DNA of 64,000 nucleotides. It comes from Verrucomicrobiota bacterium (lineage in GTDB: Bacteria > Verrucomicrobiota > Verrucomicrobiia > Opitutales > Coraliomargaritaceae). Each line of letters opens with the position of its first letter. The stretch's first letter is position 1. The stretch covers positions 1 to 64,000 of the forward strand of contig JBCBZJ010000009.1 in the NCBI GenBank assembly GCA_039815375.1. Reading direction: 5' to 3'. Below, piece by piece: positions 3,001 through 15,000 of the stretch. Made by a program: the position numbers.

Positions 3001-6000
3001 AAGAAGTTTGAAGGTGAAAGTTTGAAGGGGAGCTTTTGTGCATGAGAATCTTTCGGCTTAATCAACCTTAGATGAAGGAATGTTGGCGGAGTATACATCC
3101 CATCCATTTATCAATTCTTCTGCAACGACATTACTTAAGGAGTAGGCCGCTTCAAGGGCGGGCCGCCCACTGGCAGGATATTTTGCATTCAGGCTCCAGG
3201 CGACATCCTTGCCGATAGGCGGGGTTGAGAAATTGCTCGCAGTCCGAAGGACGAGGAGGCGGTCGAAATCGACTTTTCCGGTTTCACTGACACGCTTCAG
3301 CGCGGTCGCCGTTCCCGTGTCTTCCATATTGGTCATAACGAAGTTCCCTGTCCCGCCTGTGTGGAGTTCGACCCAGTCGTTGGCCCATTCATTTAGAGCA
3401 AAGCCGTGCCAGTAAGTGGAAGACGCCAGAGAGTCCCCAATCATCACAAACGGTGGGCGGACGGCGTTGGGGTAGCCGCTATAGATCTTGCTAAACTCCT
3501 TGACCTCTTCGTTCTCCGGAAGTTGGAAATTCTTTGTGAGTTCATAGGCCCACTCGACAAACCCTGCATTGAGCTCGAATTTGATCGTCTCGACCTGCCA
3601 GCCGTTGTCCAGTGTGTTGGGCTCTTTCGCTCCGAGTGCAATAATCCCGTAAGGCCAATCTTCCGGCATTTCGCGTGCGTCGATCTCTTTAGCCAGGTCC
3701 GCATCGACAATCCATTTTGCCCAAGCCGCGCTGCCGAGCGAGGCGTCTTCCGGGTCAGCTCCGGCAATACCAGCCACGATCCAGTAGGCTTGGCTGAGAT
3801 CAAAGCGCTCGTCGACTGCGAGTGCAGTGATTGAGGTCGCGGCGTTGGTCAGCCCGCCGCCGGTGCACATGATAAGGAGGCCGTCTTTGCGCAGATAGTA
3901 GTCACGCCAGCCGAGGGGGGCTTCGATCTTTTCAACCTCGTTCCGTTCGATCCAGAACTGGAATTCTCCCGGGATATCGCCTGTGTCTTCACCGATTTCA
4001 AACATACTGACGAGGACGACTTTGACGGGAGTAGCAGCCTCGAGGCAGTTCGTCAGTCCTGTTAAGGCAAGTGCAGAACAGAGTAGGAAATTACTGGTAG
4101 TCATGCACGAGACAAAGCAGAATACCTGCCACTTAGTGGTATGCCAATTGCTGACCTTCCAACATGAAGACCGACGACGAACGACCCCTTCCAAGCAGGC
4201 GATCACTCCTTAAAAGTGGTCTAGCTGCACTCGTGAGTGCTCCCGTGCTGGGAACCGGAGCGATTGCCGCGACAGCTTCCAAACCGCCTTTAGCCAGAGC
4301 CGTATTGCAAGGACCAGCAGTTACGAACCCGGCGAATATGGATTTACTCTTCGAACGCATCAAGCGTGAGGCTTCGGATGAAGAGCTTTACCGGTTTCTC
4401 TATGCGATGCCCAAGGGCGGCGATATTCACCATCACCTTGCCGGTGGTTTTCTACCCGCTATGTGGTATTCCATTGCGAGTGATTCGAAGCGGAACGGTG
4501 GGCAGCGTTTTTACACGCGTTATCGGATTACCGATTACAGGCGGCATCCGCTCCTGAGCCGTCCGGGTGTGAGCAACATATTTCTTTGGATCAACCTGAG
4601 GGAAGACAATGTCGAGAAGCTGGATGCCTCTCTGCGCGTGGATTTCAAACCGCTTGATGAACTAACAGAGGCCGAGCAGGCGGCATGGATGTCAGCCATT
4701 GTTCTGGACCTTCCGCATGAGGGACGAAACGAATTCTTCGAGTATCATTGGTCGCGACTTGGGGATATGAGCACCAGCATCCATGTCATGTCAGAGTTGA
4801 TGGTTGAAAACATGAAGCTCTTCGGTGCCGAAGGTGTGCGTTATCTGGAGGTTCAGCGGGGTGCTTTTCACTACCTTGATGCCAAAGGGAATTCGATTCC
4901 GGTTGAGGAATCGGAGGCTTTCTGGAATGCACGTCTCTCTCAACCCGACGCACTCGCCACGGGAGTCACTGTTCGTTGGCAGGGGATCGTGCTTCGCTTT
5001 GCCGACAATGCGCTCGATATGGTGCGGACCTGGTATGCATTCCTCGATAGCCATAGCAGCAACTGGGCTGGCATTAATATGGCGGGTCGCGAAGATGATA
5101 ATCGCGGTTATCCCAAACGTTTCACGGCCGTTTACGACGAGATGCTCCGAAAGTATCCCGGAATCGGTATTTCGATTCATGCAGGTGAAGCTGAGAAACC
5201 GGATACTCACATTCCTGATACACTACGATTGGGTGCGACCCGTATCGGCCATGGGATCAACCTTATCTGGGATGAGGACACAATGCTTCGTATGCGGGAT
5301 TCGGAGTTTTTGATCGAAATCAATCTGATCAGTAACGAGCTGCTCGGCTACGTTCCCGATTTGGACCAGCACCCTTTCCCGGTTTTCCTGCGCCAGGGGA
5401 TTCCCTGCTGCCTGAATACGGACGACCGCGGTATGTGGGATTCCAATTTCACCGATGAAGTCTACGTTGCAGTCAAGCGGTTCAACCTCTCATGGTCGGA
5501 GTTGCAGAAGACGGCGCGATTGAGCCTGGAGCATTCTTTTGCCGATCCTATCTTGAAGACCTCCCTGCTCAGCGAGTATCAATCAGATCTCGAAGCATTT
5601 TCCGCTCAGTTCAACGATTCAAATTGGAGAGCGATTTGTGCAGCAGTGCCCGCAATCACCCATGCCTACGGTATCGAGAAGTTGGGGCTCAGTCTAGGGT
5701 AGGGCTTGAGACCGATCAAGAGAAGGCGTAGAAGGCAACAAAGATCGCGCCAATGACGTAGGTCATCCAGTTGATCTGTTTCGCTCCTCCGGTTGCGACT
5801 TTCATAATGAGGAAGAGGATGATGCCGATCGCCAGCCCATGTGTGATACTGAAGAAAAGAGGAATCGCCAAAGCGGTAAAGATGGCTGTTATCGTCTCAC
5901 AGTAGTCATCGTAGGGAATCTCTTTGAGGCTCTGCCCCATTAATAGACCAACAAAGACCAGCGCCGGAGCTGTGGCAATGGCAGGGACGGAAGCAATTAA

Positions 6001-12000: not shown

Positions 12001-15000
12001 CACCTTGGAGGAGAGACTTGATTGATGCCACGGCAGCCTCATCTGACTCAACTGGAACATCTGCTGTGTTGAGGAGCTCCAGCCATTGCTCTTCGTAGAG
12101 CTGGCGCTCGGAGGCATCGGAACTGGCGCTTTGGTTGGTGATGAACTCAATCAGAAGATTCTTGGCGTAGTCAAACTCGTCACGGCGGGCCTTAACCTCA
12201 GCTTCGAGTGCACTGAGGTTGAGGTCGCGTGCGTCCCTGAGGCGTTCAAGCCGTTTCTGCTCGTCGCGGAGGTTTTCAACCTCCACTTCAAGTCCGTTGA
12301 GCTTAGTTGCCATGGGAACCTTTTCGGCCGCGATTGACTCCTGTAGCTCTGCGAGTTCTGTGATCGCTCCTTCAAGTTTTGCAGTCGATTCGGATTGGAC
12401 AGAGCTGAAGCTCTGAGCCCCGCTGATTAGAGGCGCGCCGAAAGACGCCGCCGCGAGGCTCGAAAGAAGTGTTAGCTTTAATGTCATAGAAATGTCTACC
12501 TTTCTAGGTTAGAGGGCTTTGACCGGCAGTTCGACGAACTTGGCTTCACTTGCGCCTTCGTAGGATTTGATCAGTGCAACGATGTCGTTTGCGATGGAGC
12601 TGTCTTCAGTCCAGACCCAGCCGTCAGGCCCGGGTGTGCCTGTTCCCGCGTAGGATCCGGAATCATTTGAAAAGTAGGCTCCACTCAGTCCAAAGTAAAG
12701 GGTCGTTACTTCTGAACTGCCGCCGCCCACGCTACGAATTTCGGATTTAATTGTGATTCCGGTATTGAATTTATCGATTTTGTTTAGAACACCGACTACA
12801 GTAAGCAAGCGCTGTGAAACCGGCATGCGTGTCTTTGCGTCTTCTTCAGGAAGTCTCCGAATCAGCGGATCCAGCTCCTGAACAAGCGGCTCCGGCAGGA
12901 GCGAGAGCAGCGATTTCACCTTTGACTCGAGGTCCGGCATAAAAGTCTCCAGTGCTTCGTTAGCGGCAAGGAGCCGCTCCTTATCTGCGTTTAGTTCTGT
13001 GCGGAGCTTGTCAGTGGCGTTATCGCTATCGCCGAGCTCCTCAATTCCAGTCTCATATTTTTCCTTCTCGATCTCAAGAAGTTGTATCAAATCCGATACA
13101 ATCTGCTTCTCGGCAGCCCATTCGGCTTTGGTCTCCGAGATCGCCTTTCTCGTTTCCACCCAGGAGATAAGTTCGTCTTGTGTGTCGGTGATCGAGCTGG
13201 AAAATAGCGTCGACCCAGCCACGGCAAATGCGGATACTATCAACAATCGTTTCTGAAACATGGCATAAATTTAGCTCATTCCATGCCAGCAGCCACAACT
13301 TTTCGGCAAATAATACTTTTTCATGTTTGCACCTATTTTGAATCGGGAATTTGCCATTTTTCGTGGTGCATTTCTCGATATTGCTTCCGATCAGGACTAT
13401 ACCTTGTATCCAGATGCTCTGGCGTTGGTTGGGCCAGACGGTAAAATTCTCGCATTTGGTGCGGCGGATGCGGTGGGGGCAGGCTACGGCCTTGATTTAG
13501 AACAGATCGAACCATCTGAGGGGCTTTTTTTGCCGCCTTTCTATGATATGCACTTTCACTGGGTGCAGGATGGCGTTCGCGAGATGCCCAAGATCTCTTT
13601 GATTGAGTGGTTGCAGGAGTATACCTTTCCTGCGGAGGCTGAGTTCGCAGACTCGGAGTATGCCCGAAAAAAGGCCGAGGTTTTCTGGAAACGAATCCTG
13701 CAGACCGGAACTGTTGGGGGTCTCTGCTACAGTTCGATTCATGAGACAGCGCTTGAGCAGGCGATGAATTTTGCCCAGGGCGAGTTTAAGATCGGAAATG
13801 TCCTGATGACTATGAACAGTCCGGACTTTCTTGTTCAATCGGAGGAGGAGGCGATCGCCTCGGTGAATCGTTGCGCCGAGCGCTACGGTTCACGCTATGC
13901 CTGCAGTCCAAGGTTTGCTCCGACGACTGCTCCGTCAGCGATGAATGCTGCTGCTGAGGCAGCCGCAAAAAACAGTTGTTTTCTACAAACCCACCTGGAT
14001 GAGACGCTGAAAGAGATCGAATGGGTTCTGGGCATCTATCGCGAGATTGAAGGTTTTGAGGATGTGCAGACTTATACGGAGATTTATGACCGCTGCGGTA
14101 TGCTTGGACCCAAAACCGTTTTCGGCCACTCGATCCATTTGTTGCCACAGGAGTGGGAGCGCTTGGCAGAAACTGATTCAGTTATTGCAAGCTGCCCAAC
14201 TTCGAATGCGCCGATCAACCAACTTGGCCTGGGCTCTGGACTATTCGATTATCAGTTAGCTGAAAAATACGGTGTGCGTTGGGCCCTCGCTTCGGATATC
14301 GGCGGCGGACCTTTTCTTTCCATGTTTGATGTGATGCGATCATTCGTGCAGCAGAACCGAGACGCCGGCTTGCCAGCCAGCTACTTGAAAGCGCTCTACC
14401 GAAGCACGCGGGCCGGGGCTGAAATACTCGATCTCGGTGGCTGCAAGGGTAAGTTTGCGGAGGGCTTTGACTTTGACTGTATTCGAGTGCCGATGGATGA
14501 AAACCTATTGAGGCAAAGGGATGTCGAGGAGATGCTATCTTCTTTGATTGGATCGGTTGAAGAGCGTGCGGCATTTGACGGATTGGTTGAAGACACGATA
14601 CTTTTAGGAAAGAGTGTCTTCGGCTAATGGATCGATTTTGGAGAGTCGCGCGGGACGAACTGCGTTCCGGTCACAGGGTTTACATCCTGATTGTTGCTGC
14701 TGCGAAAAAAGGTTCCCCGGGGACTTCCGCAGCGCGTATGTTGATTTATGAAAATGGGCAGCAGTATGGGACCATCGGGGGTGGCATCATGGAAAGGCAG
14801 GCGTTCGATCTGGCGCTTTCCAGTTTGAATGCAGGCAAAAAGCTTCTACCTGAGCTAGTGACCTTGAAGCACAACCAAACAGTTCCCGAAGAAAGCTCCG
14901 GTCTGATTTGTGGTGGCCAGCAAAACAATATCCGCTTCACGCTCGATGGTGAGTCACTCGGTCTTGTCGAGGATCTCGCGCTTGCCGAAGAGGCTGAGCA

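Follow-up and report, generated by a model that had tools for sequence, protein, structure and literature searches.

Sigma54 promoters and leaderless mRNAs have each been well studied, and we found no paper that describes the two as a combined class. Canonical sigma54 systems, represented by S. meliloti dctA, glnB and SMb20436 and by the RpoN-type promoters of B. japonicum, have a TGG-N10-GC core with a fixed spacer and flanking consensus, encode rpoN together with activators, and serve nitrogen, flagellar and stress targets. The genome described here resembles them in all these respects. The consensus at the flanking positions is general knowledge and can also be seen in published start-site tables. 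In the entries for S. meliloti SMb20436, dctA and glnB, the first T of the motif lies 28, 28 and 25 nt before the start site (PMC3616915 Table S10), and of 10 B. japonicum rows considered, 9 place it between -24 and -28 (PMC4842269 Table S9, in which a search for nif gene names gave no result). For C. jejuni, the start site is given as 8–13 nt from the motif end (PMC3847290). This register comes from proteobacteria, and motif placement in the tables was constrained by their authors' search. These three S. meliloti promoters, all strong examples, have leaders of 52, 51 and 159 nt; in the genome studied here, by contrast, about 40–50% of the sites are predicted to leave 0–3 nt. Two further differences are that nitrogen sites here end in GCT and clpB sites in GCA or GCG, and that several sites form back-to-back or overlapping divergent pairs.

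Leaderless mRNAs from sigma70-family promoters are known, as in Akkermansia muciniphila (PMC4782308, which puts leaderless start sites at 10%), B. japonicum (extended -10, PMC4842269), Caulobacter (PMC8459731) and Leptospira (PMC5243855). The sites described below are like these in having the start codon, mostly ATG, at the predicted +1, a pyrimidine before it and, in this genome though not at all clpB orthologs, no Shine-Dalgarno (SD)-like word; they differ in that the promoter is of the enhancer-dependent sigma54 type. In the portions of the literature covered, published leaderless transcripts either belong to -10/-35 promoters or are given without a sigma factor, and the word 'sigma' is absent from a review of leaderless mRNAs (PMC9031893). 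Surveys of sigma54 regulons (PMC3162934; PMC12316311, which includes Opitutia) likewise predict sigma54 promoters upstream of genes, and motility and ABC transporter genes are among those reported for Opitutia. PMC3162934 bins distances by 100 nt in the part considered, and the terms 'start codon', 'untranslated' and 'clpB' are absent from the part of PMC12316311 considered; neither resolves a peak at 27 nt. Further precedents are S. meliloti SMa1828 and SMc_ORF_18, where a sigma54 motif is predicted 26 nt from a leaderless start site. These are 2 of the 102 rows considered of PMC3616915 Table S10, entered there under RpoN; both have low scores and lack the GG dinucleotide, and are probably false calls. 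The parts of the paper considered do not comment on them.

Results

The window, a 64,000-nt stretch of the genome of a Verrucomicrobiota bacterium (Opitutales; Coraliomargaritaceae), contains three sigma54-type motifs, each starting 27 nt ahead of its ATG (4104, 4164 and 13261; Table 1). A motif scan of the whole window gives 7 matches against 4.6 expected.

Table 1. Sigma54-type motifs and the genes that they precede in the window
Feature	Position	Strand	Remarks
Sigma54-type -24/-12 motif	4116..4131	-	First T 27 nt before ATG 4104
NUP (purine nucleoside permease-family, PF06516) gene, predicted leaderless	3058..4104	-	Pfam match; start from gene caller; ortholog N-termini
Sigma54-type motif	4137..4152	+	27 nt before ATG 4164
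Adenosine deaminase (PF00962) gene, predicted leaderless	4164..5702	+	Pfam match; first ATG after stop 12 nt upstream
Sigma54-type motif	13273..13288	-	27 nt before ATG 13261
DUF3450 gene, predicted leaderless	12509..13261	-	Pfam match from residue 7
Second sigma54-type motif	13261..13276	+	62 nt before ATG 13323
Amidohydrolase gene, predicted leadered	13323..14627	+	Pfam match; gene caller

Two of these motifs stand back to back, with 5 bases separating their first T's. The one on the minus strand, which has an orthologous motif at 27 nt in three loci of relatives (L007, L008 and L009), precedes the NUP gene, the head of a group with adenine deaminase (1193-2995) and nucleoside hydrolase (211-1188). 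A longer GTG frame for the NUP gene (to 4206) was rejected, as it overlaps the motif and the opposite gene. For adenosine deaminase, the gene caller picked 4338, and we preferred the first ATG after the upstream stop; the resulting N-terminus carries what we take to be a twin-arginine-like motif. In relatives, the adenosine deaminase motif is found at 29 nt (G008) and 46 nt (G017/L002).

The motifs of the second divergent pair overlap at a common AGCT to give a 28-bp dyad (13261-13288). Both L002 (53/59 nt) and L184 (67 nt) retain the dyad; the minus-strand motif has its counterpart at 27 nt in both. The DUF3450 gene heads ExbB, ExbB, ExbD, TonB, TPR, amidase (FmdA_AmdA) and xanthine/uracil permease genes (11084-12487 down to 5716-7029). 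Opposite to it, the amidohydrolase gene, whose context suggests a guanine deaminase-like enzyme, heads XdhC, xanthine dehydrogenase subunit, urate oxidase, aminotransferase and amidohydrolase genes, to 23318. Because its motif begins 62 nt before the ATG, a leader of about 36 nt is predicted for this gene.

Across the genome, for which a separate gene caller run gave 2934 genes, 25 genes have a non-coding TGG-N10-GCT lying 26–29 nt ahead of an in-frame ATG, against 3.4 expected (P = 6e-14); the ATG could be the called start or another one close to it. The sites number 5, 12, 5 and 3 at 26, 27, 28 and 29 nt, and the mode is thus 27. About 3–4 of the 25 are expected by chance. At called starts, the 27-nt position holds 11 non-coding TGG-N10-GC motifs, whereas other distances average 1.6 (P = 1e-6). 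A caller-free rule, which takes the first ATG of ORFs of at least 150 codons, yields 9 sites at 27 nt and no more than 3 at any other distance. The preliminary description had reported a peak at this distance, which turns out to be larger than claimed, and all 6 genome matches of TGGYA-N7-TGCT-N11-ATG are ORF starts, as it had stated. No 27-nt peak at called starts is seen genome-wide for TGG-GC pairs with spacers of 8, 9, 11 or 12, and none of the TAG, reverse-orientation, N9, N11, GCA, GCC and GCG variants is significantly in excess at 26–29 nt. Neither TGCT alone nor TGG alone shows a clear peak, and a translational signal was rejected as the source of the pattern. A hand-weighted sigma54 matrix gives 86 matches versus 36 reversed at score 6.5 and 42 versus 11 at 7.5; the strict textbook motif TGGCAY-N5-TTGC is uninformative here, with 23 versus 19 reversed; and with loose annotation-free patterns the signal is swamped by background. 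In an unguided scan, the motif pair ranks first among about 2.9 million pairs, with a P of 1e-6 that fails multiple-testing correction.

The 25 sites also match the sigma54 consensus outside the search motif, with a pyrimidine at -23 in 21, A at -22 in 17, a pyrimidine at -21 in 21 and T at -14 in 18. A pyrimidine directly precedes the ATG in 21 of 25, compared to 58% of 1625 ATG starts (P = 0.005), and in 34/38 versus 27/49 pooled loci of relatives. A pyrimidine-purine motif at transcription start sites has been described in PMC4782308. Three short probes gave no match to the 16S 3' end.

Within the order Opitutales, the layout is gene-specific. With starts set by homology, clpB orthologs carry the motif at 27–33 nt in 34 of 40 cases (13 of them at 27), NasS-like genes at 26–28 nt in 8 of 18, and the NUP family at 26–30 nt in 7 of 18. 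At glnA, the motif lies at 88–120 nt in 25 of 30 loci, with none near 27. The closest NUP match in G018 (L006) has no motif, nor has any of 24 scored homologs at the transglutaminase-like site (5 further loci unscored). An order-wide test had been thought weak; it is stronger than feared, with 185 versus 86 pattern matches in 150 genomes (higher in 71, lower in 24), and a locus-level check gives 11/29 versus 6/30 (P = 0.16). In 20-kb regions of relatives, 14 of 28 free motifs lie at 26–30 nt, in regions picked around known matches and hence not counted. A phylum-wide claim was rejected: the raw count of 61 versus 30 matches looked strong, but a coding motif of cysS made up 22 rows (17 verified by translating them, 5 by eye), and outside the order there is no overall excess (25 versus 28 in 99 genomes). 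Single genomes outside the order do have the layout, at flagellar-like genes in G257 and at clpB in 3 of 18. In an E. coli control, none of 30 examined loci (of 64 matches) is a gene start.

The genome has one PF04552 (rpoN) match (E = 2e-58) and seven matches to the enhancer-binding activator domain PF00158, three of them at E ≤4e-65; two of these three read as receiver-AAA-HTH proteins. The motifs had been described as a nitrogen-scavenging regulon, a framing that proved too narrow. Of the 25 sites, 10 stand before genes or operons whose Pfam labels clearly indicate nitrogen scavenging, 9 fall in the same clusters or are unclear, and 6 are other. The layout is best conserved at clpB, and in relatives dnaK and flagellar genes carry it too.

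The preliminary description also held that sigma70 -10 boxes have no such peak, which is correct for TANNNT before starts in this genome and is misleading for sigma70 promoters as a whole. Among 1881 genes with free upstream DNA, the -35 box TTGAC peaks 34–39 nt before starts (58 versus 12.3 expected, P = 4e-21); in retrieved loci of relatives, the count is 6 versus 3.8. The genome thus probably makes leaderless mRNAs from sigma70 promoters as well, something that has been measured in Akkermansia. Because sigma70-type -35 boxes show a matching peak, leaderless initiation looks like a genome-wide habit rather than a sigma54-specific one. Scanning TANNNT alone can miss leaderless genes.

Discussion

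We consider it probable, at roughly 0.8, that these motifs are sigma54 (RpoN) promoters giving leaderless mRNAs (5' leader of at most 5 nt), with the register taken from papers on other bacteria. What the analysis shows is the motif with its spacing and conservation, and rpoN and activators in the genome; promoter activity, the exact 5' ends, how the mRNAs are translated and nitrogen control are inferred. Sigma54 holoenzyme would bind at the GG and GC boxes, and the promoter complex would be opened by an enhancer-binding ATPase. Transcription would begin about 26–28 nt downstream of the first T, which places it either on the A of the start codon or 1–3 nt ahead of that A. Published start sites lie 24–28 nt from the first T, and therefore leaders of 0–3 nt are predicted for the sites at 26–29 nt. 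Such mRNAs would be too short at the 5' end to hold a ribosome-binding site, and translation would presumably proceed by leaderless (5'-terminal AUG, 70S) initiation. Some 20–25 of about 50 sigma54 promoters in the genome may be of this design, with leaders retained at glnA and the xanthine dehydrogenase operon. Spacing, orientation, consensus, pyrimidine, register and orthologs all support the earlier proposal of a start site at or near the start codon; only its nitrogen-specific and sigma54-specific framings are lost. Sites at 29–33 nt have predicted leaders of 2–7 nt, which may count against a leaderless reading there; in Caulobacter reporters, leaders of 2–7 nt were translated poorly (PMC8459731).

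It is also conceivable, though improbable, that the mRNAs are leadered products of upstream sigma70 promoters, the start-adjacent sigma54 site being either an additional promoter or a spot at which inactive holoenzyme blocks read-through. Repression by bound sigma54 is known. At clpB orthologs, SD-like words occur between the -12 box and the ATG in 9 of 34 spacers versus a background of 4.6%, an indication that clpB has another promoter upstream or that the site plays a different role there. Additionally, just three strong activators face about 50 sites, and a search of 23 intervals of 600 nt for an activator-binding sequence found no enriched palindrome or NtrC-like site. However, a roadblock could work at any distance from the ATG, and the sites have both a 27-nt mode and a preceding pyrimidine. 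SD-like words are absent from all 25 sites of the genome, a result of low power given a background of just 4.5%, and where two motifs diverge, as at 4131/4137, any promoter further upstream would fall inside the opposite gene.

Less likely still are sigma54 promoters that start several nt earlier, or true start codons further downstream, either of which would create short functional leaders. The spread of published offsets (24–28), the C. jejuni register and the several sites that need a start other than the caller's choice speak for this. Against it, sites at 26–29 nt would have no more than 5 nt of leader even with the earliest offset, clpB starts are fixed by homology (all 29 scored loci align to residue 1), and Pfam domains begin at residues 5–27 in many target proteins.

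The motif is nearly palindromic (TRGCA-N7-TGCYA), and at 13261-13288 a full dyad is present, as might be expected of an operator for a dimeric transcription factor that overlaps the start region. We rejected this reading as very unlikely, on the grounds that the signal is strictly oriented (4–5 reverse-orientation motifs versus 4.2 expected; TAG variant 5 versus 2.3, P = 0.09) and that glnA and flagellar genes have this motif upstream as well, at canonical distance in the case of glnA. The least credible explanation is that the peak arises by chance or as a by-product of start calling or coding sequence: the cysS motif does mimic the pattern (22 of the 61 phylum rows and, among the matches listed, 8 of 144 order rows) and a tRNA-like word gives 7 more rows, but the genome-wide tests use non-coding motifs, which leaves coding mimics out, and the peak persists with the caller-free rule and with homology-set starts.

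If sigma54 promoters do yield leaderless mRNAs, an enhancer-controlled start site directly sets the translation start, and no 5' leader is left for riboswitch or small-RNA control. Our surprise at this pairing is moderate, since nothing forbids it and the genome seems leaderless-prone in general. A more speculative idea, which we hold only tentatively, is that the sigma54 regulon of the order is split into two conserved translation classes under selection. Purine uptake and breakdown, nitrate sensing and clpB would be leaderless, and glnA would have a long A/C-rich leader; leaderless 70S initiation might sustain translation in nitrogen starvation or heat, a second layer of control atop enhancer-dependent transcription. 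The contrast between clpB and glnA in one order offers a clean test with an internal control.

Finally, at least 9 of the 25 sites require a start different from the caller's choice. Motif spacing may thus serve to correct start calls in genomes of the order.

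Spacing of sigma54-type motifs relative to start codons

The ATG-adjacent layout of sigma54-type motifs in this genome is real and conserved, and it probably reflects a sigma54-driven leaderless architecture. The window is C27:1–64000 of a genome (3.56 Mb in 66 contigs) that encodes one copy of rpoN and contains seven sigma54-activator matches, three of them strong. Among named records, a Verrucomicrobiota MAG comes nearest to a protein of the window, at 61% identity. Gene starts were taken from a purpose-built hexamer gene caller (2934 genes), and distances are counted from the first T of the motif to the A of the ATG. 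Non-coding TGG-N10-GC at called starts has its maximum at 27 nt (11 versus 1.6, P = 1e-6), in agreement with the peak described previously; spacers other than N10 give no 27-nt peak at these starts. When an in-frame ATG is required close to the called start, TGG-N10-GCT, whose final T was picked post hoc from matches already inspected, occurs 5, 12, 5 and 3 times at 26, 27, 28 and 29 nt, or 25 sites versus 3.4 expected (P = 6e-14). Controls at 26–29 nt stay near expectation for the last base (GCA, 2 versus 2.5; GCC/GCG, 5 versus 4.6), for reverse orientation (4–5 versus 4.2) and for the spacer (N9, 5, and N11, 3, versus 3.4); the TAG variant gives 5 versus 2.3, and a non-T first base 13 versus 5.4 (P = 0.004). 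Under a caller-free start rule the peak persists: 9 sites lie at 27 nt, and no other distance has more than 3. An unguided scan of about 2.9 million pairs placed TGG at 27 combined with TGC at 15 at the top, a result that is not significant after correction. A hand-weighted matrix found 86 sites versus 36 reversed, with an ATG at 26–29 nt in 21/86 versus 1/36; these counts, which are rough and whose weights are not independent, imply that about 20–25 of some 50 real sites are ATG-adjacent.

Other features of the 25 sites point the same way. Unrequired positions match the sigma54 consensus (−23 Y in 21, −22 A in 17, −21 Y in 21, −14 T in 18). A pyrimidine directly precedes the ATG in 21/25, whereas 58% of the 1625 ATG starts have one there (P = 0.005); in loci pooled from relatives the figures are 34/38 versus 27/49 at control sites. 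A Shine-Dalgarno (SD)-like word is found in none of the 25, though with a background of just 4.5% this comparison has little power.

Motifs of the purine cluster and other targets

Pfam matches define a purine and nucleoside scavenging cluster at window positions 211–23318. Motifs 4131 and 4137 form a back-to-back pair with 5 bases between, while 13288 and 13261 overlap in a 28-bp dyad, 13261–13288, whose central AGCT is common to both. Here the first T of the plus-strand motif pairs with the A of the opposite gene's start codon. This dyad is present in two relatives as well (loci L002 and L184).

Sigma54-type motifs of the window and of divergent gene pairs elsewhere in the genome
Feature	Position	Strand	Relation to gene
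Sigma54-type motif	window 4131	−	27 nt before ATG 4104 of gene of the purine nucleoside permease (NUP) family
Sigma54-type motif	window 4137	+	27 nt before ATG 4164 of adenosine deaminase
Sigma54-type motif	window 13288	−	27 nt before ATG 13261 of DUF3450 gene
Fourth sigma54-type motif	window 13261	+	62 nt before 13323
Divergent pair, two motifs	C40:234094/234103		back to back or overlapping
Divergent pair, two motifs	C10:10055/10071		back to back or overlapping
Divergent pair, two motifs	C37:32893/32910		back to back or overlapping
Divergent pair, two motifs	C62:232359/232391		back to back or overlapping

In the divergent pairs, 4131/4137 included, the two motifs lie within 0–32 nt, so that either polymerase may shut out the other, and any enhancers would need to sit inside genes. 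An enhancer sequence was looked for in 23 intervals of 600 nt and none was found, a point against the sigma54 promoter reading.

The DUF3450 gene is the first of an operon (5716–13261, minus strand) in which TonB/ExbBD/TPR/DUF3450 genes are joined to amidase and xanthine/uracil permease genes. In another purine cluster (C10:2900–5347), a sigma54-type motif accompanies the gene of a TonB-dependent receptor. Together, these TonB-linked clusters suggest energised outer-membrane purine uptake. A 760-aa ORF at window 36327–38609 (plus strand) has no Pfam match. Of all sigma54-type motifs in the genome, the one that scores highest is found 103 nt upstream of a PEP-CTERM protein gene (C7:49305–50270).

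Targets are not confined to nitrogen genes, although first framed as a nitrogen-scavenging regulon: 10 of the 25 are clearly nitrogen, 9 are in the same clusters or unclear, and 6 are other. Relatives carry the ATG-adjacent motif before genes that we take, from their translations, to be clpB, dnaK and flagellar-like genes.

Conservation in relatives

For ortholog distances, start codons were set by homology. Upstream of clpB (best-scoring loci of at least 69 matches), the motif lies at 27–33 nt in 25/29 and 9/11 genomes of the order, presumably Opitutales; the 34 distances comprise 13 at 27, 7 at 28, 5 at 29, 5 at 30 and 4 at 31–33 nt. These sites have their own flavour, TGGAAY...TGCA/G, versus TGGYAT...TGCT at nitrogen sites. 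In 9/34 clpB spacers an SD-like word follows the −12 box ahead of the ATG (background 4.6%), which counts against a leaderless reading and points to a second promoter in the genomes concerned. In the class's other orders, clpB has a sigma54-type motif in 3/18, each at 27 nt, and TTGAC instead, 34–38 nt before the ATG, in 6/18; the leaderless state may be kept there while the sigma factor switches.

NasS-like genes have the motif at 26–28 nt in 8/18 and at 31 nt in 2, the others having it elsewhere or not at all; the NUP family has it at 26–30 nt in 7/18. The transglutaminase-like site, found in 0/24 homologs scored, is confined to this genome. At glnA the motif lies at 88–120 nt in 25 of 30 loci (our genome's included; 30 of 44 matches) and near 27 nt in none. 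Leaders of glnA in the order are A/C-rich, with an SD-like word in 0/30 loci.

Across 150 genomes of the order, a fixed pattern gives 185 matches at 27 nt versus 86 at 33 nt (higher in 71 genomes, lower in 24), but related genomes are not independent, and 144 of the 185 matches were listed, of which at least 15 are coding or tRNA-like artefacts. A locus-level check was not significant (11/29 versus 6/30, P = 0.16). Such annotation-free counts are inflated by a tRNA-like word and by a conserved coding motif mimicking promoter plus ATG at 27 nt, presumably that of cysteinyl-tRNA synthetase (cysS). Outside the order, with 22 cysS rows removed, there was no excess (25 versus 28 in 99 genomes). The E. 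coli control had 64 matches; 30 of these loci were examined, and not one proved to be a gene start; two passing the filter sit within pagP and ybhQ. In a genome from outside the class, a 26-kb stretch (C2:344507–370354) holds four motifs at 27 nt, two of them before flagellar-like genes.

Predicted leaders and a probable sigma70-type counterpart

The analysis establishes the motif, its spacing and its conservation; promoter activity, 5′ ends and translation mode are inferred. We propose, with a probability of roughly 0.8, that an activator would open the sigma54 holoenzyme complex, that transcription would begin at the AUG or 1–3 nt upstream, and that 70S ribosomes would initiate on the mRNA 5′ end, a mode described in the part of PMC9031893 consulted. 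In two proteobacterial tables, which pair mapped ends with predicted motifs, the first T lies at −24 to −28 in 9/10 B. japonicum rows examined, four at −26, the remaining row having a weak, unrelated motif placement (Table S9, PMC4842269), and at 28, 28 and 25 nt for the strong mapped S. meliloti promoters SMb20436, dctA and glnB, with leaders of 159, 52 and 51 nt (Table S10, 102 of ~118 rows covered; PMC3616915). By this register, an ATG at 26–29 nt would leave a leader of 0–3 nt, 5 at most. Sites at 29–33 nt would yield short leaders and count against a leaderless reading; in reporter assays in Caulobacter, each base of such a leader lowers translation roughly two-fold, according to the portion of PMC8459731 consulted. 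In the parts of the mostly open-access literature consulted, we found no account that treats leaderless mRNAs dependent on sigma54 as a class; the nearest published record is two leaderless rows with a weak sigma54 motif among those covered in S. meliloti Table S10.

The preliminary description had also set these promoters against sigma70, for which no −10 peak was seen. This is correct for TANNNT, which has no distance peak genome-wide; as a contrast it fails, since TTGAC peaks 34–39 nt before starts (58 versus 12.3 among 1881 genes, P = 4e-21; reverse complement, 4 versus 8.9). The looser TTG[AC][CT] gives 179 versus 69 genome-wide; for neither word is a site listed in the window. In the loci of relatives examined, TTGAC gives 6 versus 3.8. 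In the TTGAC set the −10 box is degenerate and a pyrimidine precedes the start in 37/58 (P = 0.19). These genes are probably a sigma70 leaderless class of housekeeping genes. The architecture appears not to be peculiar to sigma54: with sigma70 promoters of this genome apparently prone to leaderless transcripts too, the layout is less special than first framed, and its nitrogen-only and sigma54-specific framings fall away. In Akkermansia, 10% of start sites are leaderless by Cappable-seq, which, as far as the part of PMC4782308 consulted goes, establishes leaderless translation in the phylum.
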